DNA of 64,000 bases from Verrucomicrobia bacterium ADurb.Bin006 (GTDB lineage Bacteria > Verrucomicrobiota > Verrucomicrobiia > Limisphaerales > J093). Positions 4,898 to 59,434 of the stretch are shown here, in pieces; positions within the stretch are counted from its first letter, which is position 1; each line of letters begins with the position of its first letter. Where the stretch lies: the NCBI GenBank assembly GCA_002071485.1, contig MWFF01000132.1, forward strand, positions 21,911-85,910, written 5' to 3'. Both the position numbers and the translations under genes were made by a program. The notes below the pieces were generated by a model. That model saw only the letters and a list, made by a program, of their open reading frames with translations, made no database searches and was not told the origin of the DNA.

Positions 4898-4918
4898 GCC
4901 AAATCAAGGAGAATGTAT

Positions 4919-5326: not shown

Positions 5327-5331
5327 CGCGC

Positions 5332-7694: not shown

Positions 7695-7782
7695 AATGCA
7701 TGGGCGGTGCACGGGAGAAACATCCGATGGACTGGGAACTTGGCTTGATCGGAGCGAGTTTCTAGGTTAAAGGATTTGAACG

Positions 7783-8169: not shown

Positions 8170-8233
8170 TCCGCCTATTTCACGCTGTGTTACGACACGG
8201 AGCGGTCAGACTCCCAGCACAGTCCATCCCGAG

Positions 8234-11048: not shown

Positions 11049-11088
11049 AACACTTCTTGGCGGTGAATCTGAACAAAACACGCGATCT

Positions 11089-12765
11089 ATGTCTTTCAAA
11101 GTTGTGATTGTGGGCGGCGTGGCGGCCGGTCCCAAGGTGGCCGCAAAAATCATGCGGCTCAATCCCGAGGCGGAAGTCACCGTGGTCGAAAAGGGCAAGT
11201 TCCTTTCCTACGCGGGCTGCGGCCTGCCCTACTACATCTCGGGCATGGTCAAGGATCAAAAGGACCTGATGAGCACGCCGATCGGGGTGGTGCGCGACAC
11301 CGCCTTCTTCCAAAAGGTCAAGAACGTCCGGATCCTTAACGAAACCGAGGCCATCGAGATCGACCGCGCCCGGAAACGGGTCCGCGCACTCCCGAAGGGC
11401 AAGAAGGAGGAGATCTGGTTGGACTACGACAAGTTGGTCCTCGCCACTGGCGCGAAACCGGTCATCCCTCCAATACCGAATGTGAACCTCGGCAACATCT
11501 ATACACTGCACGGCATGCACGACGCCGAGGCGATCAAGTCCCTCCTGGGCGAAGCCAGGGCGCGCGACGTCGTGATCGTCGGCGGCGGCCTGATCGGCGT
11601 GGAGACCACCGAGGCCCTGGTCCACAGCGGCTGCCGCGTCACGCTCGTCGAGATGCTGCCGCAGGTCTTGCGTGTGCTCGATTGGGAAATGGCGCGCCTT
11701 GTGGAACAGCACATGGAGTCGCACGGGGTCAAAGTCATGACCAACACCCAGGTGACGGCATTCGAGGGGGAAGATCGCGTGACCGGCGTGATGACCACCC
11801 GCGGCCATCTCCCCGCCGACATGGTGATCCTGGCAATCGGAGTCAAACCCAACGTCGACCTGGCTCGCGCAGCCGATCTGGCTATCGGTCCGAACGGCGG
11901 TATCCGGGTCGATGACACCATGCGCACCTCCGACCCCAACATCTACGCGGCCGGCGATTGTGTCGAGACCACCGACCTCGTGACGGGCAAACCCTGCTTC
12001 GTCCCCCTGGGATCGACCGCCAACAAGCAGGGACGCGTCGCGGCAATCAATGTCTGCGGCGGAACGGATCGCTTCCCCGGCGTTCTCGGCAGCACCGTCT
12101 GCAAGGTGTTCGATTTCTGTGTGGCTCGCACCGGCCTGACCGAGGCGGCCGCCCGCCAGCACGGCTACGAGACCGTCATGGTTCTGGTCCCGGACGTCGA
12201 TCGCGCCCATTACATTCCCGGCGCGCAACTCATCGTCATGAAATTGGTCGTGGACGCCCGCACCCGCAAGTTGCTGGGCGCCCAAGCCGTCGGGTCCGGT
12301 GTCGGCGATAAGCGTATCGATGTCGCGGCCATGGCTCTCACGGCCGGCATGACGGTGGACCAACTGTCCCAAGCCGACCTCTGCTACGCCCCGCCATACG
12401 CCACCGCGCTCGATGCCATCATCACGGCCGCCAACGTCGCCCGCAACAAACTCGACGGCCTCCTGGCCGGCATCAGCTCGCAAGAGGTCAAGCAGCGACT
12501 CGACGCCAAAGAAGATTTCGTCTTTCTCGATGTCCGCAGTCCGGCCGAGCACGCCGAGACACATCTCGCCGGCTCGACGCTGATCCCCTTGGGCGCGTTG
12601 CGCGCACGCTTGAACGAATTGCCCAAAGACAAGGAGATCATCGCGTTCTGCAAAGCCTCCCTCCGCGGCTATGAAGCAGCCCGCATCCTGCAGGGGGCCG
12701 GATTCACACGCGTCCGCGTCATGGACGGCGGGGTGGCCGCCTGGCCGTTCGAGAAATGTCACTAG
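11089..12765 (+). CDS. CoA-disulfide/persulfide reductase-type FAD oxidoreductase with C-terminal rhodanese domain
   Basis: Internal ATG at 11089 of ORF 10393..12765. VVIVGGVAAGPK (FAD binding), redox Cys in SYAGCGLPYY, VVIVGGGLIGVE (NAD binding), and a rhodanese active-site loop FCKASLRG. Confidence 0.9.
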   Translation: MSFKVVIVGGVAAGPKVAAKIMRLNPEAEVTVVEKGKFLSYAGCGLPYYISGMVKDQKDLMSTPIGVVRDTAFFQKVKNVRILNETEAIEIDRARKRVRALPKGKKEEIWLDYDKLVLATGAKPVIPPIPNVNLGNIYTLHGMHDAEAIKSLLGEARARDVVIVGGGLIGVETTEALVHSGCRVTLVEMLPQVLRVLDWEMARLVEQHMESHGVKVMTNTQVTAFEGEDRVTGVMTTRGHLPADMVILAIGVKPNVDLARAADLAIGPNGGIRVDDTMRTSDPNIYAAGDCVETTDLVTGKPCFVPLGSTANKQGRVAAINVCGGTDRFPGVLGSTVCKVFDFCVARTGLTEAAARQHGYETVMVLVPDVDRAHYIPGAQLIVMKLVVDARTRKLLGAQAVGSGVGDKRIDVAAMALTAGMTVDQLSQADLCYAPPYATALDAIITAANVARNKLDGLLAGISSQEVKQRLDAKEDFVFLDVRSPAEHAETHLAGSTLIPLGALRARLNELPKDKEIIAFCKASLRGYEAARILQGAGFTRVRVMDGGVAAWPFEKCH

Positions 12766-12870
12766 CCCGGATTTCGTTGTCATCTTCCCGGTGGTGAGTA
12801 ATCTGGGCTAAGATCGCGCGAGCAACAAGCACGCCGGCATGCAACCGAACATCGAAAATCAAACTCAGAC

Positions 12871-13575
12871 ATGAATCCCGCATCCACCACCCCCGAGACC
12901 ACCGCCGCAAATCGCATCCCGCTGATTGGCGAGATCGCACCCGCCTTCAAGGCGCACACGACCCAGGGGCCGATCGATTTCCCCAAAGACTACGCGGGCA
13001 AGTGGGTCATCTTCTTCAGTCACCCCGCGGATTTCACGCCCGTCTGCACGACCGAATTCATGACCTTTGCCGCCATGATGCCCGAGTTCAAGGCCCTCAA
13101 CTGCGAACTGATCGGGCTCTCGATCGACAGCCATTACGCGCATATCGCCTGGCTGCGCACCATCAAGGAGAAAATCACATACAAGACCATGACCAACATC
13201 GAGGTCACGTTCCCGCTCATCTCCGACATGACGATGGAGGTGGCCAAGGCCTATGGCATGCTCCAGCCCGGCTCCAGCAGCACCGAGGCGGTGCGCGCCG
13301 TCTTCATCATCGATCCCAAGGCCAAGATTCGGGCCGTTCTCTTCTACCCGATGTCCAACGGACGCAACTTCCCGGAGATCAAGCGCCTGCTCATCGGCCT
13401 GCAAACGAGCGACAAATACAACGTCGCCACACCCGCCGACTGGCAGCCCGGCGAGGACGTGATCGTTCCGCCGCCCGGTTCCTGCGGTACAGCCAAACAG
13501 CGGGTCGAGAAACCGGACGCCGACGCCTACGCGCTCGACTGGTTCATGACGTTCAAGAAACTGCCCAAGGTGTGA
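12871..13575 (+). CDS. peroxiredoxin, 1-Cys (Prx6-like) type
   Basis: WVIFFSHPADFTPVCTTEF peroxidatic-Cys motif, IGLSIDSHYAHIAW and PADWQPGEDVIVPPP. Confidence 0.9.
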   Translation: MNPASTTPETTAANRIPLIGEIAPAFKAHTTQGPIDFPKDYAGKWVIFFSHPADFTPVCTTEFMTFAAMMPEFKALNCELIGLSIDSHYAHIAWLRTIKEKITYKTMTNIEVTFPLISDMTMEVAKAYGMLQPGSSSTEAVRAVFIIDPKAKIRAVLFYPMSNGRNFPEIKRLLIGLQTSDKYNVATPADWQPGEDVIVPPPGSCGTAKQRVEKPDADAYALDWFMTFKKLPKV

Positions 13576-39552: not shown

Positions 39553-39886
39553 GGGCGCCATTCTTGCCCAGGCGCCCCGCGGCGTCGAGCCGTTTGCACC
39601 GACATCCGCATTGCCCCCCGGATCGGCTAACGCCTGAACCGCTCCGGTTGGGTCATGGACCCACCACAATGAAACGGCCAGTCAGAATCCAATGCTTCAA
39701 GAGTGCCCGCCGCGATTCACGAGACAGGATTATGCCTTGCGCCACCACGGCGGCTACCTGGGGCGTCGGGCGCGCGACTAGCTTTCGCGTTGAAACGATT
39801 CTTCCCCACAGGCATGCTCCCATCACGCGGACACAGTCTGCACCAGCTTGACCCATGCCTGGCAGCGGGCTGAATGGGGTGAAAGC

Positions 39887-42800
39887 ATGAGATACACACC
39901 TAACGCCAAATGCCCTCAGCATGGCCTTCTCGAATCAGGAAAGGCCCAAGGTGAAGACGAAAACGCAAGCCATTCTCGAAGCCAGCCGCGCCTCCAACAT
40001 CATCCTCCCGCAGTCGTGACGCGAATCAAACCGCCATGCCCCGGACCCGCCATCGCCATCGCCCTTGCCCTGTTCTGCGTCACGACACTTCGCGCGCAGA
40101 CCGCAGGCGGCCTGCCTGCTCCCCTCACACCAGCGGACGGGGCTGCATCGGCGTCGGCCCAAGCCGCCCCCGACCCCGCCACAACGCGCTCCCGGCAGCT
40201 TTCTCCCTCGAACCGGGGCACGGGTCTAATCATCTCGGAGATCATGTATCACCCCCGGGAAAACGGCGGCACTGAGGTTCTGGAATACATCGAAATCTTC
40301 AACACGGAACCGGTGTCCGAGATCATCGGCGGCTGTCGACTTGGCGGCGACATCGAGTTCACGTTCCCGCCTCGCATGGCGCTCCCCGGACGCAGTTTTG
40401 TCGTCGTCGCGCGCGATCCGGAGTCGCTGCGGCGGGCGACCGGGATCACCAACGCGATCGGTCCCTTCGCGGGAAGCCTGCCCAACGACGCCGGACAAGT
40501 GCGGCTTTACAACCGCGCAGGCGCCCTGTTGCTCGAGGTCAAGTATGAGGATCAGATGCCGTGGCCGATCGCGGCTGACGGCGCCGGGCATTCCCTCGTG
40601 CTGGCCCGGCCGGACTACGGCGAGAATTCCGTCTACGCCTGGTCCGCCAGCGCCGAGATTGGAGGTTCGCCGGGCCGGGCCGACCCCGAGGTCGAGGATC
40701 CGCTCGACGCGGTGGTGATCAATGAGTTCCTCGCAAACAGCGACCTCCCCGAGGTTGACTTCATCGAACTCTTCAACCGCGGCACTCAGACCGTCGACCT
40801 GTCCGGATGCATCCTCAGCGACCGGCCTGATATCAACAAGTTCATCATCCCCGCCGGAACTCTGCTCCCGCCCGGTCGATCGGCGCTCTTCTCCGAAGCG
40901 GGCCTCGGCTTTGGTCTCAGCAGCCACGGGGAGTCGATCTTCTTCGTGCGCGCCGACGCCACCCGGGTGATCGACGCAGTGCGATTCGGCGCGCAATCCC
41001 CAGGCGTCTCCTATGGACGCTCCCCTGACGGAGCGCCGGCCATCCGCGAACTCTCGCGTCCGACGCCCGGCGCCCCCAACAGCGCTCCGGCCCTCCACGA
41101 CATCGTCATCCACGAGATCATGTATCATCCGATCTCAGGTCTCATCGAGGACGAATACGTCGAACTGCACAATCGGGGCAGCAATGCGGTGGACGTTGGC
41201 TACTGGCGGTTTGTGGACGGCATTAGCTTCATGATCCCGCCCGACACCCGTATCGAGCCCGGCGGCTACCTGGTTGTGGCGCGCGACCGCGCCCGGCTCC
41301 TCGGCAAATACCCGCAACTCAACTCGGCCAACACGCTGGGAGACTACGAGGGCGAACTCTCGGACCGCGGCGAACGGCTGGCCCTGGCGAAACCGCTCGA
41401 TCCGTTGCGGCCGTTCCAGGACTTCGTGGTGGTTGATGAGGTCACGTACAGTGACGGCTGGGGACAGTGGACCGACGGAGGCGGAAGCAGTCTGGAACTG
41501 ATCGATGCGCATGCCGACAACACCCTGGGCGCGAACTGGATGGGCAGCGACGAGACGGCCAAGAGTTCCTGGACCGATATCGAACACACGGGTGTGATTG
41601 ACAACCAGGCCGGGAGCATGGACGAACTTCAAGTCTTTTGTCAGCAGGGCGGCGAGTGCCTCCTCGACAACATCGAATTGACAAAAGCCGGCGAGACCGT
41701 CAACCGCGTCAAGAATCCCGGCTTCGAAACCAGCCTCAGCGGATGGGAAGCGCTCGGCACACACGAGCGGTCCGGGATTGAAGCCGGCGAGGGCTATCAG
41801 AGCAACCGCAGCCTGCACGTGCGCGCAACCAGCCAGGGCCGTTACACCATCTCCGTTTACCGGATCACTTACGACCGCCTCTCGACACCAATCGCCGCAC
41901 CCCGCGCCGGAGAGACGTTCACCATCCGCGCCAAAGGCCGCTGGATCGCCGGTTGGCCCTACATCATCATCGGAGTCAAGGGCCACGCCCTCGAGGCCGT
42001 GGGCGCCCTCGAGGTGCCCGACAACCTCGGCACCCCCGGCCTGCCCAACAGCCGACGCGTGGCCAATGCCGGTCCGGCCATCTGGGACGTTCAGCACGCG
42101 CCCGTGCTGCCCGCAGCCGCTCAACCTGTGACTGTGTCCGCCCGGGTCCATGATCCCGATGGCGTGGCGTCGGTAGTCCTCAAGTGGCGCAACGACACCG
42201 CCGCTGGTTCGTTCACCACCACGCCAATGACCGATCCGGACGGCGACGGCGTCTACCGTGCGACCTTCCCCGGCCTGCTCACGGGACAGATCGCAACCTT
42301 CTCGATCGAGGCCGCCGATGCCGCGATGCCCCCCGCTACCAGCCGGTTCCCGGGACCGGCGCCGACGGGAATGCCGGCCCTCGAGTGTCTGGTGCGGTTC
42401 GGCGACACACTCCCGCCCGGGGTGTTCGGCGCATACAGGGTCTGGGTGTCGTCCGGCAACGTCGCGCGGTGGCAGGCCCGCCCGACTCGCAGCAACGAGC
42501 CTGTCGACGCCACCTTCACCTATGACAATTATCGCACGGTCTATAACGCCGCCGTCCGCTACCGCGGCAATTGGCGTGAGGGCGGGTTCGAGGACTACAG
42601 CCGCGCCGCCTACATGATCGACTTTCCAAAGACCGAGCGCGTCCTCGGGGACACGCAGATCGCCCTGGATTTCATCAGCCTCAACTATGACAACGGCACC
42701 AAACAACAGGAGAAACACGCCTACTGGATCGCGCGGCAGGTCGATCTCGCCTCGATCGCCATGCGCTATGTGCACGTCAGCGTCAACGGTTCCGCCCTGT

Positions 42801-45800
42801 TCCGCTACGACTCCTTCTCGCCTTCGAGGTCGCTCTGCAGCCGCTGGTACGGCGACGACGATCCGCACGTGTACGAACAGCTCTATCCGCACGAGCCCTT
42901 CGCCAATTACACCACGACCGGCGGCGTCAAGAAGCAAGCCAAATACCGCTACTGCATGCGCAAGAAGGTCACCACCGTGCCCGACGACGATTTCTCGCCT
43001 CTCTATCGGGTGGTCGACGCCCTCAGAGCCCCAACCGACGACCTCTACGTCGCCCGCGTGTCCGCCCTGGCCGATATCCGGAGTTGGGCGGGGTACTGGG
43101 TGATCAACCGGATGTGCGGCAACGGCGACCACTACAACTCGTCCGGTTACCCGCACAACATGTACACGTACATCCCTCCCTACGGACGCTCCAGACTCCA
43201 CGTCAACGACACCGACGGCGCCTTCCAAACCGTCTACTCGATCTTCCCCGACTCCGGCTTCCTGCCCGGGATCATGTTCGCCAAACCCGAGTTCCGCCGC
43301 GTCTACTGGCGTCTGGCCTGCGACGTGGCGCGGGGCCCCATGGACCCGGCCATCAGCACCACACGCCTCAACGACTGGTACCAGGTCTTCCGCGACAATC
43401 GAATCGCCGCCGACTCACCCAACAAGATGAGCAACTGGATCACTGCCCGCAGAAGCAGCTACCTCCAATCGTTGGCCCCCATGACAAACCTCGCCTTCAA
43501 GGTTTCCACCCCGAACATCACGACAAACACAACACCCATCACCGTCATCGGCGAGGCGCCGATCGCCGTCACCGCCATCGAAGTCAACGGCCTCCCCCAC
43601 GCCGTCAAATGGATCGGCGAAACCGTCTGGCAAATCCGCGTCGCTCTCAGCCCCGGCGCCAACGCCCTTGCCTTCCGCGCCCTGGATGAACATGGTGGCA
43701 TCGTCGGAAACGCCGCCCGCACGGTCACCTACACCGGAGCGCCCGTGTCACTCGAAGGTAAGCTCCTCATCAGCGAAATCATGTACCACCCCGCGGCCCC
43801 CGCCTCGAGCTTCGTCGAAATCCTCAACCTCTCCCCCACGGAAACCCTTCCCCTGGGCGGGCTGCGCGTGGACGGAATCGATGCCACCATCGGACACGGA
43901 CGCTTCATCGCGCCGGGCGAGTATGCGGTTGTGGCCAGGAGCCTGCCGGGCTATCAATCGAGCTACGGCAATGCTGAGGTCGTCGTCGCGGAATTCAATG
44001 GCGCACTCGACAATGGCGGAGAGACGCTCACCCTGCAATGGACTGATGGCACAAACACAATCGTTCTCGACCAGGTCACCTACGGCGGCCATCCGCCCTG
44101 GCCCGCCGCCGCCGACGGCGCCGGCGCATCGCTGCAGTTGATCGACGTGTTCCGTGACAACGACCGCATCGGCAATTGGACCGCCATCCAACCCGGCGGC
44201 ACGCTGCCCCTGGCAACGCCAGGCCAGTCAAACAACGTCACCGCGCGCCTCCCCGAATTCCCCCTGCTCTGGATCAATGAAGTCATGCCGTCCAACACCA
44301 GCGCGCTGGCGGACAACGCCGGCGAATTCGACCCCTGGATCGAACTGTTCAACGCCGGCACGAATGCGATCGCTCTCACAGGCTGCCACCTCAGCAACGA
44401 TCCCTCGAATCTGCGCCAATGGGCCTTCCCCGACGGATCGAAGATCGGCCCGGGTGAACGTCTGCTGGTCTGGGCCGACGCGCAGCCCCAGCAGACCGAT
44501 GGCTCCCATCTGCATGCCACCTTCCACCTAGAGAGCGGCAGCGGCACCGTGGTTCTGGCCTGGCATTACCTGGGCCGTACCATCGTCCTCGATGCCATCT
44601 CCTACGCCGATGTCCCCGCCGACTGCTCGTACGGATCCTATCCGGACGGCGCCCCGCACGCCCGCCGGCTTTTCCACAATCCCACGCCGGCATTGCCCAA
44701 CAGCCCCGCCTGGCCGCCGCTGCTTGTCACCATCAACGAGTGGATGGCCGCCAACACTCGGACGATCGCCGATCCTGCCGATGGCGATTTCGACGATTGG
44801 TTCGAACTCCACAACGCCGGTCCCTACCCGGCGTACCTCGGCACGTACACATTGACCGACAACCTCGATATCCCAACGAAGTTCTCGATCCCCGCCGGCA
44901 CCGTCATCCCGCCCGGCGGCTTCCTGCTGCTCTGGGCGGACGAGGAGACCAACCAGAACGCTCCAGGCCAGGACCTGCACGTCAACTTCAAGCTCGCCCA
45001 GGGCGGCGAACAGATCGGCCTGTTCGATCCGGACGGCGTCCCTGTCGACACGGTCTCCTTCGGTCCACAGTCCGATGACGTCAGCTTCGGGCGATTCCCC
45101 GATGGCGCCGATTTGCCCGCATACGAAATGGTCGAACCTACTCCCCGCACCCCGAACAGCCTGGCCGGCGCCAACCGCCCCCCCGTCTTCGATCCGCTGC
45201 CCGATCAGACTGTCGCCGAAGGCAGCCCGCTGGTCTTCACCGTCAGAGCCACTGATCCCGATGCCGGCGATACGGTGCGGTACAGCCTCGGCCTGGGCGC
45301 TCCGCCCGAGGCCGAGTTGAACGAACAGACCGGCGAGTTCCGCTGGGTCCCCGGGGAAGCCGATGGCCCGAGCCGCCTGCGCTTCCTCGTTCACGCCGCG
45401 GACAACGGAACACCGGTCCGAATCGGGAATCTGTGGGTCGACGTGAACGTCACGGAAGTGAACGAACCGCCTCGGATCAGTCCCATCGCGGACCAAATCG
45501 TGGATGAAGGGGCTTTGCTCGCCCTCGAGTTCACCGCCAGTGATCCCGATCTGCCTCCCAATCGCCTCATCTTCACTCTCGCCCCCGGCGCGCCCGAAGA
45601 TGCCATCCTCACAAAGGACGGCGCCTTTACATGGATTCCCGACGAATCGCGAGGCGACACCACCGTAACCATCACCGTGCGCGTCTCCGACCAGGGCTCG
45701 CCCGAGTACACCGACACCACCAGCTTCAACGTCCTGGTTCGTGAGGTGCCCAATCCGCCCGTCATGCCGTCCCTTCCACCGCTGTTTGTCGCCGAAAACA

Positions 45801-48016
45801 GTCTGTTCTGCCTCCGCATCGATGCGTTTGATCCGGACACGCCGCCCAGTCCGCTGGTCTTCGCGCTGGATGCCGCTCCGCATGGGGCGACGATCGCGCC
45901 TCTGACCGGCGAGATCAGATGGCTGCCCGGCGAGGAAATCGGTCCCACCAACGCCACCTTCGTCGTGCGCGCCACCGAGCTGCAACCGCCTTATGCCAGT
46001 TCCACCCGTGCCTACTACGTCACGGTGACCGAGGTGAACCAGGCCCCAGTCCTCCTCCCGATCGCCGATCAGGCTCTGCGCGAAGGCGACACGCTCGCCA
46101 TCCAGGCGGCGGCGCTAGATGCCGACCTGCCACCGCAAACGCTCACCTTTTCGTTCGCCGGCGGCGCCCCCGCCGACATGTCCATCGACACCGCCACTGG
46201 CCGCATTTTCTGGCCTGTCGGACCTGACCAGGGCGCCAGCACCAACGACGTGACCGTGCGGGTCACCGACGACGGTCCGCCTCCTCGCTACGCCGAGCGG
46301 ACGTTTCGCGTTGTCGTCCAACCCCAGTCGCACCTGGTCATCAACGAAATCATGTACCGCCCCGCATCCAACGCGACCGAGTTCATCGAGATCGTCAATA
46401 ACTCTTCCAGTGCGACGGCGGACCTCGACGGCGTGGAACTTACCGCCGATGCCCTCGCGTTTGCGTTCCCGCATGGCAGGACGCTCGAACCCGGCGCCTT
46501 CACCGTCGTGGTGCGTAATCGAACAGCCTTCGAAGCGGTTTACGGCACCGAGGTCCCGATCGCCGGCCAGTGGACCGGCCAGCTCGATTCGACCGCCGAC
46601 ACCGTCCGCCTGACACGCGTCGCGCCGGGTGGCCAGACCGACACGCTCGACGCGGTGCGTTTTTCCTCGGAAGCCCCCTGGCCCAGCGCGGCCAATGGCC
46701 AGGGCGGGTCGCTCCAGTTGATCGATGCCAAACAGGACAACACACGCGTCGCCAATTGGACCGCCATCCCCGCTCTCGGATCAGTCCAGTCCCGCCGGCT
46801 GCTCGAGATGACGAACCTCTGGCGCTACGAGCAGTCGGGCAGGAATTTCGGCGTTGCCTGGCGCAATCCCGGCTATGACGACTCCGCCTGGCCCTCCGGA
46901 CGCGCCCTGCTCTACGCCGATAACGCGGCCTTGCCCGCGCCCAAGAATACGCGGCTGACCCTCGGGCCGACCACGTTCTACTTTCGCACCTCGTTCCTGT
47001 ACGACGGCCCAACCGCGGGTGCGCGCCTCAAGGTCAACACCATCATCGATGACTCCGCCATCGTCTACCTCAACGGCACCGAGGTGTTGCGGGTCGGATT
47101 CAACCAAGACGACAAGGTCGCGTTCAACACCTTCGCCAGGCGATGGGTCGATAACGCCGCCCTCGAAGGCCCGTTTCTCATCGACCAGGATGCACTCCGA
47201 TACGGCACCAACGTCGTCGCAGTCGAGGTTCACCAGAACAACGCCAACAGCTCGGATGTCGCCTGGGGAATGGACCTCGAAGTCGAAGGCACAGCCGACG
47301 CCGCCACGCCTGGCCGCCCCAACTCGCTCGCCCATGCTCTGACCCCGTTCCCGCCCGTTTTCCTCAACGAAGCCGTCGCCGTGAATGCCGCTGGCCCGGT
47401 CGACAACGCCGGCGAGCGCGAACCCTGGATCGAGTTGCTCAACGACGGCCCCCTACCCGTCTCACTCGAAGGTTGGTATCTTACCGATTCGTTCACCGAT
47501 CTGACGCGATGGCCGGTCCCCGCCGGATTCGAGCTCGAAGCAGGGGAGTTGCGTCTGCTCTGGGCCGATGGCGACCCGTCTCAAACCACCCCAACCGATG
47601 CCCATACCAGCTTCCGAATCGACAACGGCGGCGTGGTCGCGCTGGTCCGGATGCAGGCCGACGTGCCGGTGATCGTCGACTATCTGCGCCTCCCAACCCT
47701 GCCGCCAGACACCTCCTACGGCTCGATGCCGGATGGACAGGCCCTGATCCGCGATCTCCTCGCTTCGCCCACACCCCGCGATCCCAATCGCCACATCCCG
47801 GCGCCGCAACTTGCGAACCTGGCATCGGGTTCCGCCGATGGCCTTCGCTTCGAGTGGGTGAGCATCCCGGGCGTCAGGTACCGCGTCGAAGGCGCTGTCG
47901 CCCTGACCGGGCAACCCTGGGTGACTCTCGCGGAATCCGTGGCGCAGTCCGGGTCCATGCGCTATACCGAACCGCCGTCCGCAGCCATGCGTTACTATCG
48001 CGTGCTGGTCCCGTAA
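39887..48016 (+). CDS. giant exported lamin-tail-domain (LTD) x8 / CotH / cadherin-like-repeat protein
   Basis: About 2700 aa. There are eight LTD starts (LIISEIMYHP, VVINEFLANS, IVIHEIMYHP, LLISEIMYHP, LWINEVMPSN, VTINEWMAAN, LVINEIMYRP, VFLNEAVAVN). A CotH-like core lies at about 42430-43540 (YRGNWREGG..., GNGDHYNSSGYPHNMYTY..., NDTDGAF). Four cadherin-like repeats lie at about 45170-46320. Hydrophobic signal AIAIALALFCVTTLRAQ. The start codon is uncertain. Confidence 0.85.
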   Translation: MRYTPNAKCPQHGLLESGKAQGEDENASHSRSQPRLQHHPPAVVTRIKPPCPGPAIAIALALFCVTTLRAQTAGGLPAPLTPADGAASASAQAAPDPATTRSRQLSPSNRGTGLIISEIMYHPRENGGTEVLEYIEIFNTEPVSEIIGGCRLGGDIEFTFPPRMALPGRSFVVVARDPESLRRATGITNAIGPFAGSLPNDAGQVRLYNRAGALLLEVKYEDQMPWPIAADGAGHSLVLARPDYGENSVYAWSASAEIGGSPGRADPEVEDPLDAVVINEFLANSDLPEVDFIELFNRGTQTVDLSGCILSDRPDINKFIIPAGTLLPPGRSALFSEAGLGFGLSSHGESIFFVRADATRVIDAVRFGAQSPGVSYGRSPDGAPAIRELSRPTPGAPNSAPALHDIVIHEIMYHPISGLIEDEYVELHNRGSNAVDVGYWRFVDGISFMIPPDTRIEPGGYLVVARDRARLLGKYPQLNSANTLGDYEGELSDRGERLALAKPLDPLRPFQDFVVVDEVTYSDGWGQWTDGGGSSLELIDAHADNTLGANWMGSDETAKSSWTDIEHTGVIDNQAGSMDELQVFCQQGGECLLDNIELTKAGETVNRVKNPGFETSLSGWEALGTHERSGIEAGEGYQSNRSLHVRATSQGRYTISVYRITYDRLSTPIAAPRAGETFTIRAKGRWIAGWPYIIIGVKGHALEAVGALEVPDNLGTPGLPNSRRVANAGPAIWDVQHAPVLPAAAQPVTVSARVHDPDGVASVVLKWRNDTAAGSFTTTPMTDPDGDGVYRATFPGLLTGQIATFSIEAADAAMPPATSRFPGPAPTGMPALECLVRFGDTLPPGVFGAYRVWVSSGNVARWQARPTRSNEPVDATFTYDNYRTVYNAAVRYRGNWREGGFEDYSRAAYMIDFPKTERVLGDTQIALDFISLNYDNGTKQQEKHAYWIARQVDLASIAMRYVHVSVNGSALFRYDSFSPSRSLCSRWYGDDDPHVYEQLYPHEPFANYTTTGGVKKQAKYRYCMRKKVTTVPDDDFSPLYRVVDALRAPTDDLYVARVSALADIRSWAGYWVINRMCGNGDHYNSSGYPHNMYTYIPPYGRSRLHVNDTDGAFQTVYSIFPDSGFLPGIMFAKPEFRRVYWRLACDVARGPMDPAISTTRLNDWYQVFRDNRIAADSPNKMSNWITARRSSYLQSLAPMTNLAFKVSTPNITTNTTPITVIGEAPIAVTAIEVNGLPHAVKWIGETVWQIRVALSPGANALAFRALDEHGGIVGNAARTVTYTGAPVSLEGKLLISEIMYHPAAPASSFVEILNLSPTETLPLGGLRVDGIDATIGHGRFIAPGEYAVVARSLPGYQSSYGNAEVVVAEFNGALDNGGETLTLQWTDGTNTIVLDQVTYGGHPPWPAAADGAGASLQLIDVFRDNDRIGNWTAIQPGGTLPLATPGQSNNVTARLPEFPLLWINEVMPSNTSALADNAGEFDPWIELFNAGTNAIALTGCHLSNDPSNLRQWAFPDGSKIGPGERLLVWADAQPQQTDGSHLHATFHLESGSGTVVLAWHYLGRTIVLDAISYADVPADCSYGSYPDGAPHARRLFHNPTPALPNSPAWPPLLVTINEWMAANTRTIADPADGDFDDWFELHNAGPYPAYLGTYTLTDNLDIPTKFSIPAGTVIPPGGFLLLWADEETNQNAPGQDLHVNFKLAQGGEQIGLFDPDGVPVDTVSFGPQSDDVSFGRFPDGADLPAYEMVEPTPRTPNSLAGANRPPVFDPLPDQTVAEGSPLVFTVRATDPDAGDTVRYSLGLGAPPEAELNEQTGEFRWVPGEADGPSRLRFLVHAADNGTPVRIGNLWVDVNVTEVNEPPRISPIADQIVDEGALLALEFTASDPDLPPNRLIFTLAPGAPEDAILTKDGAFTWIPDESRGDTTVTITVRVSDQGSPEYTDTTSFNVLVREVPNPPVMPSLPPLFVAENSLFCLRIDAFDPDTPPSPLVFALDAAPHGATIAPLTGEIRWLPGEEIGPTNATFVVRATELQPPYASSTRAYYVTVTEVNQAPVLLPIADQALREGDTLAIQAAALDADLPPQTLTFSFAGGAPADMSIDTATGRIFWPVGPDQGASTNDVTVRVTDDGPPPRYAERTFRVVVQPQSHLVINEIMYRPASNATEFIEIVNNSSSATADLDGVELTADALAFAFPHGRTLEPGAFTVVVRNRTAFEAVYGTEVPIAGQWTGQLDSTADTVRLTRVAPGGQTDTLDAVRFSSEAPWPSAANGQGGSLQLIDAKQDNTRVANWTAIPALGSVQSRRLLEMTNLWRYEQSGRNFGVAWRNPGYDDSAWPSGRALLYADNAALPAPKNTRLTLGPTTFYFRTSFLYDGPTAGARLKVNTIIDDSAIVYLNGTEVLRVGFNQDDKVAFNTFARRWVDNAALEGPFLIDQDALRYGTNVVAVEVHQNNANSSDVAWGMDLEVEGTADAATPGRPNSLAHALTPFPPVFLNEAVAVNAAGPVDNAGEREPWIELLNDGPLPVSLEGWYLTDSFTDLTRWPVPAGFELEAGELRLLWADGDPSQTTPTDAHTSFRIDNGGVVALVRMQADVPVIVDYLRLPTLPPDTSYGSMPDGQALIRDLLASPTPRDPNRHIPAPQLANLASGSADGLRFEWVSIPGVRYRVEGAVALTGQPWVTLAESVAQSGSMRYTEPPSAAMRYYRVLVP

Positions 48017-51815: not shown

Positions 51816-52337
51816 TGTCGCGGCTTGTTGAGGTCGGGAGGACTGAGAACCGTGCCCCAAGTGTTGGACCACGGAATCGAGAGTTCAAGTTAGGCTCTCC
51901 GGGGTCGCTGAGATCGTTGTTGTTGTCTTGTGTTCTGTTCCTGTCGATCCGGTTGGAAATGAGAAAGGGAGGATCCAACCTCATCCCTTTCCCCTCTCCG
52001 TCTCTTAGGACACACTCTCTATGACTCATGGTGCCCGCTTCGTTCAAGCCCAAACGGCTGGCCGTGCTCCATGGCCCTCGGGGTCTAGGCACTAGAGTCA
52101 AGGGGATATGCAGAAGACCACGATTTTCGCCTATTTGGAGAAATCCACATCCAATCTGGAGCCTCCCTACACCCTCGACATCAAGCCCTATGTACCCCCG
52201 CTCCCTTCGGGACAGGCTCGACCCTCAGAATCTGTGCAGTTTGCCGGCCAGCCCTCGATGCCTGCCCAGCGACTGCGTCATGCACAACATGCCTGCTTTC
52301 CGGGACTGATAACCCTCTCGCTGACGGAAACTGAGGG

Positions 52338-52364
52338 GGACCGCCCGCGGTAAGCGGGCGGTCC
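52338..52364 (-). terminator. GC-rich hairpin directly after the stop of the 52383..54488 gene
   Basis: GGACCGCCCGC (52338-52348) and GCGGGCGGTCC (52354-52364) form an 11-bp perfect stem with a 5-nt loop, about 19 nt downstream of the stop on the - strand. The trailing U-tract is weak. Confidence 0.5.
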
Positions 52365-52382
52365 GCATCCGGCGCGACACGA

Positions 52383-54488
52383 TCAATCGACGAGCCGGAA
52401 GAATCGCTGCGGCTCGGGGAATGTGTTCGTGTAGGGCGCCAGGGTGACACCGGGCACGTTGGTATACGAGCCGGTCACAGCTGGGGCGGTCTGGAGGCGA
52501 TGGCCGCCGACCCAGTCGAGGAGAGTCTGGCCATCGGTCTGAAGGATCGAGAGGTTCGGCGCGGGCGGCGGGGCCGGCATGGCGCCGCCATCGGGCACGA
52601 ACAGGAAGCGGATCGTGATCGGGTCCAGGACATTGACCTGAGGGTTGCCGACGCCCGAGGTGGTCAGGCGCAGCCATTTGGAGTTGACCAGGCCGTTCCA
52701 CGCCCATTGGACGCGGATGGATTTGGTGCCCTCGTAGGCGGCGGTGTTGACGATAGCCGCCGAGTTGGGCGCGCCAGCCAGGTTGCCACTGGTGCTGCCG
52801 GAGAAATCCGGGGCCCGAAAGCCGACATCGGTTGTGCCGGCCGGCGAGGCCTCGAATCCGTAAAACACATTGGTGCCATTCTCGATGGTATCGATGTAGA
52901 TGTCGTGCGGGCCGACGGACGTGAGGTCGTCTATGGCAAAGGCCAGCGCGTCGATCGTGTACCAGTTGCTTCGGAGACAGGAGATGCAGCCCACGGCATC
53001 GGGATCGCCGGTGGCGGTGTACCACTTGACCGACGGTCCGGTCTGGAGCCGGTTGGGTGTCACCTCGCCACCCCACAGCCAGGCGTTATTGGCATCGCCG
53101 AAGGTCGTGGCGCCAGTCACGTCGACATACTCGAGGTAGCCGCCGCTGTTGAGATCCCGCAGCAACCGGTAGCCGTCCGCGCCGGGCACGGCATCCCAGG
53201 CCCAGTTCACTTGAAATCCCCCGGTGCTGGTGACAGCCGACGACTCGGCGGGCGTGGTCGAGTAAATGTTACCGGCGCCGTTCGGAAGGGTGCGATAGGC
53301 GTACACCTGGATGGCGACGGTTTCATGGGGGTTGTATCCCGCCCCCGCGACTGCGGTTCCCGTTGCGTTCGCGGAGTCGCCCACGCGCTGAATCCCGGCG
53401 TCGAACGTGACGGTCTGCCAGCCGTCGCTGCTCGGGACAAGCACCTGTCCTGGATAGCCCGGAGCGGCAGTGAGTCGGTTGGTGACGCCCAGGAAGTGGA
53501 TATTTGCCGTCGTGCCGCCGGTCGTCACGCCCGCCGAGCCGACCGGTCCGGTGCTGGGAGTCTCGCGCAGGCTCAAGGCGAGGCGCACGCGCGGGTTGAC
53601 TGCGCCCACCACGATGCCCGTCGGGACACCCCACAGACAGCCTTCCCGGCCGTCGATCGTTTGGGTGGCGGCGAGCTGGCCCGTGCTGACGAGGCCCGTG
53701 ACGGGCACCGTCAGGGTGCCCGCAGCGATCGCGTCGGTCCTCTGCCCGACGAGCGTCCAGGCGTTATTGACGTATTGATACACCTTGACGGCCGTGGCGG
53801 CGGCATCGACATCGGTCACGGTGACCGACGTCGACGTGGTCACGTACGATCCCGAAATCCCCACTGCCGGCACCTCAGTGCAGCTGTCGCTGACAAACAG
53901 GAATGTGTCGATCAGGAGGCGATGCTGCGCCCCCGCATCGACGTCACCGCTTTCCCAGTAGAAGTTGATAGTGGGAACGTTGACCTCTGCCGCGTTGGTC
54001 AGGTAGCCGAGGAACTGCCACGTGTTCATCCCGCCGGAGGAGACGCCGAATCTGGCCTGGAACTTGTCGGTGTTGGTAAATGAGAGTGTGCAGCCATCGA
54101 TCGCAGTCACGCCAAGCACAACGTCGGCGCTCACATTCCCGGCTGCCGAGCTGAAGACATGGTAGATTCGGTAAACGCCGCCGGGGATTCCGAGCGTGGG
54201 ACTGATGGTCACGCCGAAGTCCGGCGAAGAGCCGCTCATGAACGAGGTGCTGAAGTAGCGGGCACCGGCAGTGGCGGGCTTGCCTGGGGCGAGGGAAACG
54301 GCGGTGGTGAATGCGCCGAAGCTGTTCTCGTTGTATACGTAACCGCCGTAAAGATTGACATCCTCATTGAGGCGGCACTCGGCGGTGTCGGTGCAGTTCG
54401 ATGTGGTCGCCGTCACGTAAACGAAGTCAGCCCAAGCCGCAATCGAGCAGGCGGCCAGGGTTCCCAGTGTCAACAGTAGTTTCTTCAT
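52383..54488 (-). CDS. large exported hypothetical protein with shared C-terminal module
   Basis: Signal MKKLLLTLGTLAACSIAAWA (ATG 54488 within ORF 52383..54569). About 700 aa and Thr/Gly/Val-rich, with beta-rich composition. Ends ...PQRFFRLVD. I recognise no family. Confidence 0.7.
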   Translation of the reverse strand: MKKLLLTLGTLAACSIAAWADFVYVTATTSNCTDTAECRLNEDVNLYGGYVYNENSFGAFTTAVSLAPGKPATAGARYFSTSFMSGSSPDFGVTISPTLGIPGGVYRIYHVFSSAAGNVSADVVLGVTAIDGCTLSFTNTDKFQARFGVSSGGMNTWQFLGYLTNAAEVNVPTINFYWESGDVDAGAQHRLLIDTFLFVSDSCTEVPAVGISGSYVTTSTSVTVTDVDAAATAVKVYQYVNNAWTLVGQRTDAIAAGTLTVPVTGLVSTGQLAATQTIDGREGCLWGVPTGIVVGAVNPRVRLALSLRETPSTGPVGSAGVTTGGTTANIHFLGVTNRLTAAPGYPGQVLVPSSDGWQTVTFDAGIQRVGDSANATGTAVAGAGYNPHETVAIQVYAYRTLPNGAGNIYSTTPAESSAVTSTGGFQVNWAWDAVPGADGYRLLRDLNSGGYLEYVDVTGATTFGDANNAWLWGGEVTPNRLQTGPSVKWYTATGDPDAVGCISCLRSNWYTIDALAFAIDDLTSVGPHDIYIDTIENGTNVFYGFEASPAGTTDVGFRAPDFSGSTSGNLAGAPNSAAIVNTAAYEGTKSIRVQWAWNGLVNSKWLRLTTSGVGNPQVNVLDPITIRFLFVPDGGAMPAPPPAPNLSILQTDGQTLLDWVGGHRLQTAPAVTGSYTNVPGVTLAPYTNTFPEPQRFFRLVD

Positions 54489-55079
54489 AAGAATACGTTT
54501 CAACGCGAATTTGTTGGCGATCAATACTATACGATGGGTAACACCCGAGCGCCGCCAGGTCAAGACCATTCGCAGCCCGGGGCGCAGCTCAGGTTTTTCC
54601 AGGGGGGTGCCATTTGTGAACGACCGGTCGGGTCATTGTGGCGTGAGGGAGTGATGGTTGGTGAGGGGTTGATGGGATCAATTGCTGGCGAGGGATGGGG
54701 GCGCGGCGTGCGGGAAGAGGTGGTGCCAGCGGTCGTTACGCCAGAAGGTCTCCAGACCCATCAGGGCCTCGCCACCGACGGTGGTCCAGAACTGGCCGGT
54801 GCGATTGAATCGACAAAGGTCCGCTGGGGGTAATCAGTCCGCTGGATACCCTGTAATGCGTATTGAGGGCACCCAAAGTAATTGACCGGTTGCTCAAAGC
54901 CCGGCAGCTTGAGGCCCAACTCAAGCTCATCCTGGCAGGCGAAGCACCGTATTATGTTTTTGAACATTCTCTACTACACTGACGCGCGTGAGGCCCTTCT
55001 GAAGGCGATCATCTAGTGATGTCTGCCGGCCCAACGCGTCGCCTGGGACATTCACGTCAGTACTGCAATAGCTACGGTT

Positions 55080-55175
55080 GGAGAGTGAAGGGTGCCTGGT
55101 GGCCCTCGCGGTCTTCAAAACCGCCGTGTCGGCGCTTGCGTCGACAGGAGTGTTCGATTCGCTCCCTCTCCGCCA
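55080..55175 (+). tRNA. selC: class II tRNA with UCA anticodon, selenocysteine-type (tRNA-Sec candidate)
   Basis: Hand fold of the 96 nt:
- acceptor GGAGAG(UG) pairing with (CC)CUCUCC, G73 discriminator, encoded CCA;
- D arm GGGUGCC-UGGU-GGCCCUC;
- anticodon arm GCGGU-CUUCAAA-ACCGC (anticodon UCA);
- variable arm of about 22 nt (UGUCG...CGACA);
- T arm GGAGUG-UUCGAUU-CGCUCC. Confidence 0.75.
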
Positions 55176-55210: not shown

Positions 55211-56647
55211 CTAGTTTGCGGCGAACGGCAGCACAAGGGACAGCACCAGCGTGGCCAGGAGGCCGACCACGCTGTTGACGGTGACCACGAGGGTCCACGA
55301 CTTGAGCGTTTCCTTCTCGGTGAAGCCGCTGAGCTTGCCGACAACCCAAAAACCGCTGTCGTTCATCCAGGAACAGATCATCGCGCCGAACCCGATCGCC
55401 AGGAAGACGTAGATCGGATGATGCGGCAGGGTCCCGCCCGTCATCAGGGGATATACCATTGCCGCCGTTGTCAGCATCGCCACCGTGGCTGAGCCTTGTG
55501 CAATCCGGATCACGGCCGCGACAGTCCAGGCGAGCAGGACCAGGTTCACGTTGTGGCCGGCGGCCGCTTGCTTGACCGCCTCCCCCACTCCGGCGTTCTT
55601 GAGCATGAGACCGAACGCGCCGCCGGCGCTCGTGATGAGAATAATGACGCCTGCCGTGGCCAAGGGCGGTCCGATCATCTCGTTCACACGGGCCAGCGTG
55701 ATGCGGCGTTGTCGCATAAGGACGCCGATGGCAATGGCCGCCCCGATCAGCAAAGCCACGTTGCGGTTGCCGGCGAAAGCGATCATTGCATGCCAAATCG
55801 GACGCTGATCCGCGGGCAGCGGACCGGCCGCGAACGCCGACGCGAGACTGATCAGGAGGATCGGGAGAATAACCGGGAGAATCGACCAGAAGAAGGACGG
55901 CAGCTCGTCTTCACTCTGGTTGACGATCGCGCGGAGATCATCGAGCGCCACCCCGGGCGTGTCGCGCATCGGCACCGTCATCCGCGCGTTGATCCATTTG
56001 GCCACGGTCCAGGACGCCGCAACGGGCACAATGCCGACGGCTACGCCGACGAAGATCGAGAGGCCCAGATCGACGTGGAGGACTTCGGCCATCGCCAGCG
56101 GCCCGGGATGCGGCGCGCACATCGAATGCGTCACCACGCCGCTGCAACAGATGGCCATGACATAAAGCAGATAGTCTTTGCCGGTCCGGAGGCACAGGGC
56201 GCGCGCCAGCGGCAGCAGGAGCATGAAGAAGGTGTCGAAGAAGATGGGGATGGACAGGATATACCCGGATATCAGGATCGCGGCGCCCGCCCGACGTTCG
56301 CCAAAAATAGCCAGGAAACGCCGCACAACCTTGTCCGCCGCGCCGCTCTCCATCAGGCACATGCTGATCACCGAAGCGAGCCCGATCACCACGGCGATCT
56401 TTCCGGCTGTGAGGCCAAACTCGGATGTCGTCAACTCGACGGCGTGGACCCAATGGCCGGCGCCGGGCGTCTCGCCCGGCAAAGACCCGGCGGGCGCGAG
56501 GAGACCCGCCGCAATGGCAGCCAGGATGAGGGCGATGAAGGCGTGCAGGCGAGCCACGGTGATCAGAAAGATCACCAGGGCCATGCAGATGGCCAGGACC
56601 ACCAGGGGCCAGTACGCTGAGGCGCCGGCGGCAAAGAGAGATCCCAT
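55211..56647 (-). CDS. GntP-family (gluconate:H+ symporter-like) permease
   Basis: 478 aa and highly hydrophobic. VARLHAFIALILAAIAAGLL, GSATVAMLTTAAM and FLAIGFGAMICSWMNDSGFWVV are typical GntP blocks. Confidence 0.9.
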   Translation of the reverse strand: MGSLFAAGASAYWPLVVLAICMALVIFLITVARLHAFIALILAAIAAGLLAPAGSLPGETPGAGHWVHAVELTTSEFGLTAGKIAVVIGLASVISMCLMESGAADKVVRRFLAIFGERRAGAAILISGYILSIPIFFDTFFMLLLPLARALCLRTGKDYLLYVMAICCSGVVTHSMCAPHPGPLAMAEVLHVDLGLSIFVGVAVGIVPVAASWTVAKWINARMTVPMRDTPGVALDDLRAIVNQSEDELPSFFWSILPVILPILLISLASAFAAGPLPADQRPIWHAMIAFAGNRNVALLIGAAIAIGVLMRQRRITLARVNEMIGPPLATAGVIILITSAGGAFGLMLKNAGVGEAVKQAAAGHNVNLVLLAWTVAAVIRIAQGSATVAMLTTAAMVYPLMTGGTLPHHPIYVFLAIGFGAMICSWMNDSGFWVVGKLSGFTEKETLKSWTLVVTVNSVVGLLATLVLSLVLPFAAN

Positions 56648-57883: not shown

Positions 57884-57974
57884 TCGCCCGCAATGGGCAA
57901 ATCCAAAGTCGCGCTGGGCTCATTGTGCGCTTATTGGTTGGTCAGTCGCGTGCCGACCCGCTAGTCTGTCCGCC

Positions 57975-58826
57975 ATGAGCGAACGCATGTTCACACTCGG
58001 ACACTCGCCCGACCCGGACGACGCCTTCATGTTCTACGGTCTGGCGAAAGGCCTGATCCCGACGCCTGGCTATCGCTTCGAGCATATCCTCGAGGACATC
58101 CAGACGCTGAACGAGCGGGCCACGCGCGGCGAACTCGACATCTCCGCCATCAGCATCCATGCCTATGCCTACGTGGCGGACACCTACGCGCTGTTGCCCA
58201 GCGGCGCCAGCATGGGCGACGGCTATGGCCCCATGCTCGTCGCCAAGCGGCCCGTCGGACGGAACGACATTGCCGCGTGCCGCATCGCGGTGCCGGGCAC
58301 AATGACCAGCGCCTTTCTCGCCCTGCAACTCTGGCTGGAGCGACGCGCCGACCAGCTCTCGTGCGTGGTCGTCCCGTTCGATCGCATCTTCGCCGCCGTC
58401 AAAGAGGATCGGGCCGATGTCGGTCTCATCATTCACGAGGGCCAACTGACCTGGGACAAGGAGGGGCTCGTTGTTTGCCAGGATCTCGGGGCGTGGTGGA
58501 AACGCGAAAACACCGGCCTCCCCCTGCCCCTGGGCGGCAACGTCATCCATAAACGCATCCCCGCGGAGGATCGCTGTCGCATCGCCGACATCGTTCGGAC
58601 CAGCATCCAGTTCAGTCTGGATCACCGCGCGGAAGCCGTCGGCCATGCGCTTCAGTACGCGCGGGACATGGGACGCGACCTCGCCGATCAGTTTGTCGGC
58701 ATGTACGTGAACCACTGGACGCTCGATTACGGCGACCCGGGCCGCGAAGCGATCCGCCGCTTCCTCGCCGCGGCGCAAGCCCGCGGTCTCATCCCCAAAA
58801 GCCCGCCCCTCGAATTCGTCAATTGA
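57975..58826 (+). CDS. MqnA/MqnD-family protein (futalosine-pathway menaquinone biosynthesis, likely 1,4-dihydroxy-6-naphthoate synthase-like)
   Basis: Internal ATG at 57975 of ORF 57864..58826. FTLGHSPDPDDAFMFYGL, EDIQTLNERA, LDISAISIHAYA and SGASMGDGYGPMLVA match the VitK2_biosynth (MqnA/MqnD) pattern. Confidence 0.75.
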   Translation: MSERMFTLGHSPDPDDAFMFYGLAKGLIPTPGYRFEHILEDIQTLNERATRGELDISAISIHAYAYVADTYALLPSGASMGDGYGPMLVAKRPVGRNDIAACRIAVPGTMTSAFLALQLWLERRADQLSCVVVPFDRIFAAVKEDRADVGLIIHEGQLTWDKEGLVVCQDLGAWWKRENTGLPLPLGGNVIHKRIPAEDRCRIADIVRTSIQFSLDHRAEAVGHALQYARDMGRDLADQFVGMYVNHWTLDYGDPGREAIRRFLAAAQARGLIPKSPPLEFVN

Positions 58827-58844
58827 CTCGCATCCACACCCATC

Positions 58845-59228
58845 ATGAAAAACCACACGATCATTCAGCCTGTCGGCGCGCCGGCACCCGTGGGCCCCTA
58901 CAGCCACGCTGTTCGGGTTGGTCCCCTGCTCTTCTGCTCGGGCCAGATTCCGCTCGATCCCGCCACCGGCGTCCTGGTGCCGGGCGACGTCAAGGCGCAG
59001 ACCGACCGGGCCATCGAGAACATCAGGATCATCCTCGCCAGCGAGAACCTGACGCTGGCCAATGTGGTGAAGACAACCGTGTACCTGCTCGACATGGCGG
59101 ATTTCGCCGCGATGAACGAGGTTTACGGACGCCACTTCAGCGGCGACTGCCCGGCGCGCTCGGCCGTGCAGGTTGCGGCCCTGCCACGGGGCGCGCGCGT
59201 CGAGATCGAGGCGATCGCAGCATATTGA
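58845..59228 (+). CDS. ridA: RidA (YjgF/TdcF) family reactive-intermediate/imine deaminase
   Basis: APAPVGPYSHAV, LFCSGQIPLDPATG, VKTTVYL.DM.DFAAMNEVY and PARSAVQVAALPRGARVEIEAIA. Confidence 0.9.
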   Translation: MKNHTIIQPVGAPAPVGPYSHAVRVGPLLFCSGQIPLDPATGVLVPGDVKAQTDRAIENIRIILASENLTLANVVKTTVYLLDMADFAAMNEVYGRHFSGDCPARSAVQVAALPRGARVEIEAIAAY

Positions 59229-59434
59229 TGTTTCCGGCAGTCCCGGGCTTATTTCCGCCATTCAGCGGGAAAAACCTGCAATTCTCGATTTGACAACGCG
59301 CAGAGCGGCGAATCCGGGAACCCGGCCTACGACCGCTCGATTCTCCGGTGCTGTAAGCCGGGCGCCCGCACCTGGCGGCAAAGCCAAGCACCCGGAATGA
59401 GAGCCGCCAGGGGAACACGGCAGGAACAGATCAC

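Follow-up and report, generated by a model that had tools for sequence, protein, structure and literature searches.

A verrucomicrobial selenocysteine tRNA gene with a 12-bp acceptor/T branch, a short form that appears to be the norm in its clade

A stretch of 64,000 nucleotides of bacterial DNA (the window) carries a 96-nt gene for a selenocysteine tRNA (tRNA-Sec), anticodon UCA, which is very likely a functional selC of a Verrucomicrobiota bacterium. Its acceptor/T branch is shorter than that of the textbook tRNA-Sec, and comparison with related sequences suggests that this short arm is not an oddity of one gene: it appears to be the lineage norm, fixed across a verrucomicrobial clade. The gene, including its encoded CCA, lies at 55080–55175 on the plus strand and reads GGAGAGTGAAGGGTGCCTGGTGGCCCTCGCGGTCTTCAAAACCGCCGTGTCGGCGCTTGCGTCGACAGGAGTGTTCGATTCGCTCCCTCTCCGCCA. 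ARAGORN reported tRNA-SeC with the anticodon tca at tRNA position 36 (window 55115–55117). The Rfam model for tRNA-Sec, RF01852, matched with 60.6 bits against a gathering score of 47 (E 8e-10), and this was the sole Rfam or tRNA family in the 64-kb window. A first-pass annotation, made from the sequence alone, had proposed a tRNA-Sec (UCA) at this place; ARAGORN and RF01852 bear it out, with no other tRNA family assigned. As to the host, a relative of the window's MqnA-like protein at 95% identity is named Verrucomicrobiota bacterium by NCBI. The parts of the gene and its left border are as follows.

55080–55175, plus strand: selC, 96-nt tRNA-Sec with CCA (ARAGORN; RF01852, 60.6 bits; sequence).
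55080–55087, plus strand: 5' strand of the acceptor stem, GGAGAGUG; G1–G6 pair with 55166–55171, U7 (55086) is unpaired, and G8 can pair with C 55165.
55090–55106, plus strand: D arm with a 6-bp stem, bulged U at 55093 and loop UGGU at 55097–55100 (pair counts, covariation).
55107–55126, plus strand: anticodon arm of 5 bp plus the closing pair C28:G47, with bulged C at 55125, loop CUUCAAA and UCA at 55115–55117 (pair counts).
55127–55146, plus strand: variable arm, 8-bp stem and CUUG loop (compensatory changes; fold).
55147–55164, plus strand: G68 (55147), then the T arm GAGUG/CGCUC around the loop UUCGAUU at 55153–55159 (pair counts).
55147, plus strand: G68, a possible sixth T-stem pair with C 55165 (u6:t6, GC in 96/96).
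55165–55171, plus strand: 3' strand of the acceptor stem, CCCUCUC-C, 7 nt; together with 55160–55164 it makes up the 12-nt 3' side (sequence; 137/137 loci).
55172–55175, plus strand: discriminator G73 and encoded CCA (sequence).
55062–55079, no strand: left edge of synteny with the sister species; leftward of 55062 homology is broken by inversion and insertion (blastn against L247).

Much of the tRNA can be read directly from the gene. The anticodon loop is CTTCAAA, the D loop is TGGT, and the T loop TTCGATT is followed by 12 nt (CGCTCCCTCTCC), the discriminator G and CCA. The first-pass annotation had named the same anticodon loop, discriminator and CCA, all of which are seen in the sequence, and its count of 12 rather than 13 nt from T loop to discriminator was right. 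The gene thus combines a covariance score above threshold with UCA in a 7-nt loop, and it has a 6-bp D stem with a 4-nt D loop and one bulged U. G73 (the G at 55172) and a long variable arm, the identity elements for SerRS, are both present. The variable arm had been put at about 22 nt; it is indeed long, but its 8-bp stem and 4-nt loop give a total of 20 nt. All helices of this copy are fully paired. The one feature of the classical tRNA-Sec that the gene lacks is the 13-bp (8/5) acceptor/T branch, as its 3' side has only 12 nt. A simple scan detected no sigma-70-like promoter or intrinsic terminator adjoining selC.

We analysed the helix geometry with pair counts in a 14-sequence alignment and in 96 unique sequences of the clade, indexed from both ends. 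In the 14-sequence alignment, 96% of the cells pair and 15 pairs show compensatory changes, a result reached by 0 of 500 shuffles. Among the 96 sequences, acceptor pairs 1–6 are invariant (96/96), and nucleotide 7 (U, rarely A) stands opposite an invariant C with which it never pairs (7:t6, 0/96). The fifth pair of the T stem, u5:t5, is present in 95/96 and covaries (GC 45, GU 40, AU 7, CG 3), whereas the pair specific to an 8/4 arrangement, 8:t5, is found in 88/96, with 8 breaks and one-sided changes only. These counts indicated that the T stem has at least 5 bp, and on this covariation the 8/4 geometry was rejected as disfavoured. The first-pass annotation had listed 8/4, 7/5 and 6/6 as the possible splits, and never 8/5; the list was sound as such, with its 8/4 member now disfavoured.

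The junction C can be paired in two ways. It pairs with G8 in 90/96 sequences when nucleotide 7 is bulged (8:t6), and with the invariant G just 5' of the T stem as GC in 96/96 (u6:t6). Because C66 and both of its candidate partners are nearly invariant, an acceptor stem of 7 bp plus a bulge over a 5-bp T stem fits the counts, and so does a 6/6 split. Compared with its 13-bp relatives, the tRNA has a 5' strand of full length (8 nt plus a 2-nt linker), and only the 3' partner of nucleotide 7 is missing; the acceptor/T helix therefore stacks 12 bp and not 13, and a bulged nucleotide 7 would be the more natural reading. Thus, the cloverleaf most likely consists of a 7-bp acceptor stem (G1–G6 plus G8, with U7 bulged) over a 5-bp T stem, to judge from the pairing pattern, although the 6/6 split appears equally compatible with the pair data.

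Bulges were also located in two other helices. The D stem has 6 bp with U14 bulged, and its pairs hold in 91–96 of the 96 sequences (13:25 in 96/96, 12:26 in 96/96, 11:27 in 95/96), with covariation at 12:26 (GC, CG, GU and AU). The first-pass annotation had correctly seen the 4-nt loop UGGU, but had closed it with a helix of seven positions and six pairs; we rejected such a seven-position stem with one mismatch, as 14:25 pairs in only 1/96. The anticodon stem has 5 bp plus C28:G47, which is formed in 96/96 sequences (CG 95, UA 1) with nucleotide 46 bulged; the alternative 28:46 is formed in 0/96, and 29:45 occurs as GU, GC and AU. In the stem of the variable arm, compensatory changes among the relatives were found at 8/8 pairs.

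To place the 12-nt form, we scanned one genome per GTDB species with a pattern search, which returned at least 120 tRNA-Sec loci. Among the matches listed, 99 of the 119 readable tRNA-Sec have 13 nt after the T loop, their sources being Actinomycetota, Planctomycetota, Gemmatimonadota and other phyla; two genes with 12 nt among these genome matches are from Rubrobacter, for which the short form had been published before. Thirteen further genome loci listed combine 12 nt with 5' (GGAGAG(U/A)..) and 3' (..CCUCUCC) strands of the window type. Twelve of these are labelled Verrucomicrobiota and one Phycisphaerales. Conversely, all Verrucomicrobiota-labelled genome matches listed (12/12) are of the window type, and no 13-nt tRNA-Sec from a genome with this label was found among the matches listed. 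A second scan covered metagenome contigs with a pattern permitting 12 or 13 nt, and all of the 120 additional loci listed have 12 nt. Genomes and metagenomes together gave 12 nt in 137/137 related loci, with 96 unique sequences. In the patterns used for this collection, the anticodon and D loops were preset, as was part of the acceptor stem, so the invariance of these parts is no evidence. The first-pass annotation had offered 'a slightly atypical selC' as one option. The gene is shorter than the 8/5 form, as that wording implied, but it is not peculiar, as 137/137 relatives have 12 nt.

Two observations were made on individual members of the collection. The locus labelled Phycisphaerales (L027, JAQGHP010000636.1) is a 12-nt selC of verrucomicrobial type on a 6.5-kb contig of a metagenome-assembled genome, and may represent a mis-binned contig or a transfer. 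In addition, L022, L042, L054, L065 and several metagenome loci (T arm GGUUGG/CCUUCC) form a subgroup with two adjacent U-U mismatches at the centre of the T stem, and in a relative, L222 (GGAAGG/CCUUCC), both T-stem pairs are restored.

In the relatives, the same type of tRNA is linked to genes for selenocysteine synthesis and decoding. On the closed verrucomicrobial chromosome OY969763 (L019), Pfam assignments gave the order selC, selD, selA, a transglutaminase-like gene and selB on one strand, with an AIRS-family selD, a selA matching PF03841 at 1e-122, and a selB with GTP_EFTU and SelB wing domains. The usual operon order in the relatives is selC-selD-selA-selB. A tblastn search found selD or selA adjoining selC in 95/137 loci, and in 70/92 of the loci with at least 1.2 kb of downstream sequence. 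In the other 22/92 relatives with sufficient flank selC stands apart from selD; such separation is thus common in the clade. The transglutaminase-core (PF01841) gene lies repeatedly between selA and selB (L019 3177–4130, L251 2755–3729, L258 5341–6324).

The selD gene next to selC contains an informative codon. Its reading frame can be followed 5' of the annotated start, past an in-frame stop codon that lies in the catalytic motif SSCAG-x-ASKL. At this Cys/Sec site, SSCAG[U]ASKL, 84 loci have TGA and 4 have TGC or TGT (84/88 TGA), which is the classic Sec/Cys signature. A hairpin lies +28 to +48 nt after the TGA, and three pairs in it show covariation that is kept up despite the amino-acid changes it entails, making it a SECIS-like candidate. 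The selD calls (L019 5482–6444 and 84 other loci, e.g. L147 from ~900) begin after the TGA and give proteins of 314–347 aa. On these sequence features, the verrucomicrobial selD adjoining selC is itself a predicted selenoprotein gene. A small Rdx/SelW-like gene located just 5' of selC in several relatives has a TGA in its CxxU motif, EYCTA[U]NYEP (L254 240–413, L255 7332–7505 and L256 4386–4559; motif MNPEIIIEYCTA[U]NYEP), and its public call of 57 aa begins after the TGA and lacks the N-terminus. The linkage to the sel cluster and the TGA codons in the selD and SelW-like genes indicated that relatives with this tRNA type decode UGA as selenocysteine. The T arm of the window tRNA is common to five metagenomic tRNAs. 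Two of these have sufficient downstream sequence and a selD match, and in L147 and L228, its closest tRNA relatives with downstream sequence and the same T arm, a UGA-containing selD follows directly after selC. The option of a selC of slightly unusual form was therefore upheld: the same tRNA type heads selC-selD-selA-selB clusters in which selD has a TGA at the Cys/Sec site.

We searched for the corresponding machinery in this genome. With verrucomicrobial SelA, SelB and SelD as queries, tblastn found no match in the window, confirming the first-pass annotation on this point, and none in further stretches of the same contig; an Rdx homologue was likewise not matched in the window or its flanks. 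In all, no sel or selenoprotein genes were found in ~75 kb of the 140-kb contig. When a Udaeobacter-like SelA and the SelD of the closest tRNA relative were used as queries, the best 120 homologues of each were from other lineages. The Sec machinery is highly likely to be encoded elsewhere in this genome.

A scan of the window for in-frame TGA codons accepted only cases with 40 or more codons on both sides, and would thus miss genes of the Rdx type; it gave five candidates, none convincing. Those at 37366, 56951 and 4411 lie inside clear genes on the opposite strand, and for the one at 15357 another reading frame or the opposite strand holds a likelier gene. The fifth consists of two adjacent genes, one MqnA-like (57975–58826) and one RidA-like (58845–59228), which are in the same frame and separated by TGA plus 18 nt, and so mimic read-through. 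A 439-aa ORF on the minus strand (57942–59261), opposite these two genes, is probably spurious. Other parts of the window were also inspected. At 39848–48016 on the plus strand there is an ORF of 2722 aa, across which the GC skew is strongly negative. The LTD, CotH, RibLong and He_PIG domains that public calls list for this gene point to a large protein of the surface or adhesin-like kind. The region 1749–13575 holds a gene cluster typical of an anaerobe, according to precomputed Pfam assignments on the public contig: SAM methyltransferases, an ARMT1-like protein, a radical-SAM protein, a 1-Cys peroxiredoxin, two small Nitro_FeMo-Co (dinitrogenase cofactor-binding-like) proteins, CbiA/ParA-type ATPases, one with Fer4 motifs, and a pyridine-nucleotide disulfide oxidoreductase fused to a rhodanese.

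In the window selC is solitary, located between the gene of a 728-aa protein (52383–54569, minus strand) and the 3' end of a GntP-family permease gene (55211–56647, minus strand). Three independent assemblies are 100% identical to the window over the 2.7 kb compared around the tRNA. Apart from these identical assemblies, no synteny of the GntP neighbourhood was found among 240 tRNA loci. A sister species (JGI 3300010429, NCBI GCA_022710935.1), with ~91.6% nucleotide identity in the flanking genes, has selC at the same place. Its tRNA differs at 3 of 96 positions (3.1%), compared with ~8.4% in the neighbouring coding DNA, and all three changes are structure-neutral: C45U turns a G-C into a G.U pair, C46U replaces the bulged nucleotide, and U57C falls within the variable loop. 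The T-arm and variable-arm sequences of the window tRNA are specific to its lineage, yet fully paired. Together with the conservation in the sister species, this is a pattern suggestive of purifying selection on a working tRNA.

On the 5' side of the gene the two species differ. Synteny with the sister (window 52231–55079; L247 1431–7041) breaks 18 nt upstream of selC, and the segment with the 728-aa gene is inverted in the sister relative to the window. The sister has an extra segment of ~2.7 kb that encodes a PQQ-repeat protein, a 120-aa Cas7-like fragment and a 145-aa ORF, and is flanked by direct repeats of ~85 nt (L247 4150–4232 and 6875–6957); the window has a single copy (52231–52309). 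This comparison suggests a hot spot of rearrangement on the 5' side of selC.

The solitary position raises the question of whether the gene is a relic. The lineage could have moved selC out of its sel operon and then lost selA, selB and selD, so that the gene would be an undecayed leftover without a role. The absence of any adjoining sel gene in the window and in the sister, unlike in most relatives, and the lack of Sec machinery in ~75 kb of the contig would be expected under this explanation. However, all helices are preserved in the window copy, full compensation is seen in the lineage-specific sequences of its variable and T arms, and the three differences from the sister are structure-neutral and amount to well under the divergence of the neighbouring coding DNA. 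Moreover, the 22/92 relatives described above also have selC away from selD. We therefore consider a relic improbable, and a functional selC remains the preferred reading.

We then compared the tRNA with known classes. It shares with the canonical 8/5 tRNA-Sec of E. coli and Aquifex (13 bp) the UCA in CUUCAAA, the 6-bp D stem with a 4-nt loop, the long variable arm, G73, the 5' side of 8 nt plus a 2-nt linker, and the match to RF01852. It differs in that its 3' strand is one nucleotide shorter, giving the 12-bp stack, and in the extra bulges in the D and anticodon stems. A closer match is a class described by Santesmasses, Mariotti and Guigo (2017), who reported 47 tRNA-Sec genes from bacteria in which the acceptor/T (AT) stem has 12 bp, in a 7/5 fold with bulged nucleotides (PMC5330540). 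In that class the T stem and G73 are separated by 7 residues, the anticodon stem commonly has a bulge at 43a, and the Clostridiales members have a D-stem bulge at 13a (PMC5330540). The window tRNA likewise has 7 residues between a 5-bp T stem (u5:t5 in 95/96) and G73, and its family has the corresponding single bulges in the acceptor stem (nucleotide 7 unpaired in 96/96, G8:C formed in 90/96), the anticodon stem (43a-like; C28:G47 in 96/96 with nucleotide 46 bulged) and the D stem (13a-like). Also shared are G73, an often encoded CCA and, in most relatives, adjacency to sel genes; 12-bp tRNA-Sec genes usually lie beside selA and selB (PMC5330540).

The two groups are not identical. In the 12-bp groups only some members have the short form, whereas in the verrucomicrobial clade every member sampled has it (137/137), and the operon is selABC in the former compared with selC-selD-selA-selB in the latter. 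The class was reported from Gamma- and Alphaproteobacteria, Clostridiales, Spirochaetes, Rubrobacter and Dehalogenimonas, and Verrucomicrobia appear in neither the text nor the supplements of that study (PMC5330540). Our literature search found no description of a verrucomicrobial tRNA-Sec. A Cloacimonetes-type tRNA-Sec from Mukai et al. in 2016 is reportedly placed with the 12-bp AT-stem class as well.

Other tRNAs also have a 12-bp branch. Mukai et al. (2017) interpreted some tRNA-Sec of the 12-bp kind as 8/4 structures bulged in the T stem, and such 8/4 forms with bulge A51a are known from Actinobacteria and Chloroflexi (PMC5389517). Allo-tRNAs are defined by an 8/4 or 9/3 split (PMC5389517). 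The 8/4 tRNA-Sec and the allo-tRNAs share with the window tRNA the 12-bp branch and the Sec-like D and variable arms; they differ from it in that its T stem has at least 5 bp and needs no bulge, while position 7 is unpaired and an 8-bp acceptor stem finds no support in the counts. The window tRNA has neither the 8/4 nor the 9/3 split. As it shares the features of the 12-bp bona fide tRNA-Sec and falls outside the definitions of allo-tRNAs and of the selC* type discussed below, we placed it in the former class.

This comparison bears on a second explanation, in which the gene would encode an allo-tRNA-like opal suppressor: a serylated tRNA carried by EF-Tu. Without involving SelA or SelB, this tRNA would place serine at UGA codons or have a regulatory role as an RNA. 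Allo-tRNAs too have a 12-bp branch, a long variable arm, G73 and a Sec-like D arm (PMC5389517), and SerRS prefers 12-bp acceptor domains (PMC7609411). Allo-tRNAs are by definition 8/4 or 9/3, however, and in this family there is covariation at the fifth pair of the T stem, while nucleotide 7 is always unpaired. Furthermore, this tRNA type is linked in the relatives to selD-selA-selB and to TGA codons at Sec/Cys positions, and the allo-tRNAs reported come from Clostridia, Proteobacteria and Acidobacteria, with none from this phylum (PMC5389517). We regard such a suppressor as very improbable, and the first-pass annotation's option of an allo-type non-canonical UGA tRNA was set aside because 8/4 is disfavoured and the tRNA of the relatives is linked to selD-selA-selB. 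A version confined to this species and its sister is just as hard to credit: selC would have been uncoupled and the Sec machinery lost, and the serylated tRNA(UCA), with its EF-Tu-compatible 12-bp branch, would now serve as a UGA-to-Ser suppressor or regulatory RNA. If it were true, an allo-tRNA-like function would have evolved out of a genuine selC.

A selC*-type tRNA-Cys, that is, a mimic of tRNA-Sec charged with cysteine that reads UGA, would agree with the anticodon, UCA, and with a Sec-like shape that includes a 12-bp branch, but it can practically be dismissed: in that type U73 is the main CysRS identity element and selB* or cysS* is often located downstream (PMC5389517), while the window tRNA and all 13 genome-scan relatives listed have G73, a base left unfixed in the scan, and downstream of the window gene there is no selB* or cysS* but the GntP permease gene on the opposite strand.

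For a functional selC, the pathway would run as in other bacteria. SerRS would charge the tRNA with serine by means of the long variable arm and G73, SelA would convert Ser to Sec with selenophosphate made by SelD, and SelB-GTP would bring the Sec-tRNA to UGA codons with a downstream SECIS hairpin. One point counts against this reading. In E. coli, the 8-bp acceptor stem within the 13-bp branch is described as the main determinant of SelB binding and EF-Tu rejection (review, PMC7609411), and the tRNA has 12 bp. SelB would thus have to accept the 12-bp form, and EF-Tu to reject it. The bulged nucleotide 7 may substitute for the missing base-pair layer: stacked into the helix, it might restore the spacing of the 5' strand, or the cognate SelB might have adapted.

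These results suggest that this organism very probably reads some UGA codons as selenocysteine, and in that case gene callers will truncate its selenoprotein genes, as seen in the relatives, where selD and the SelW-like gene are called without their N-terminal parts. For the tRNA family, the 12-bp class has been known since 2017, and the verrucomicrobial clade extends that picture and does not change it. A 12-bp branch apparently fixed throughout a clade conflicts with the textbook rule that 13 bp are required for acceptance by SelB and rejection by EF-Tu, and the clade offers many natural SelB/tRNA pairs for testing what measures the length of the arm.
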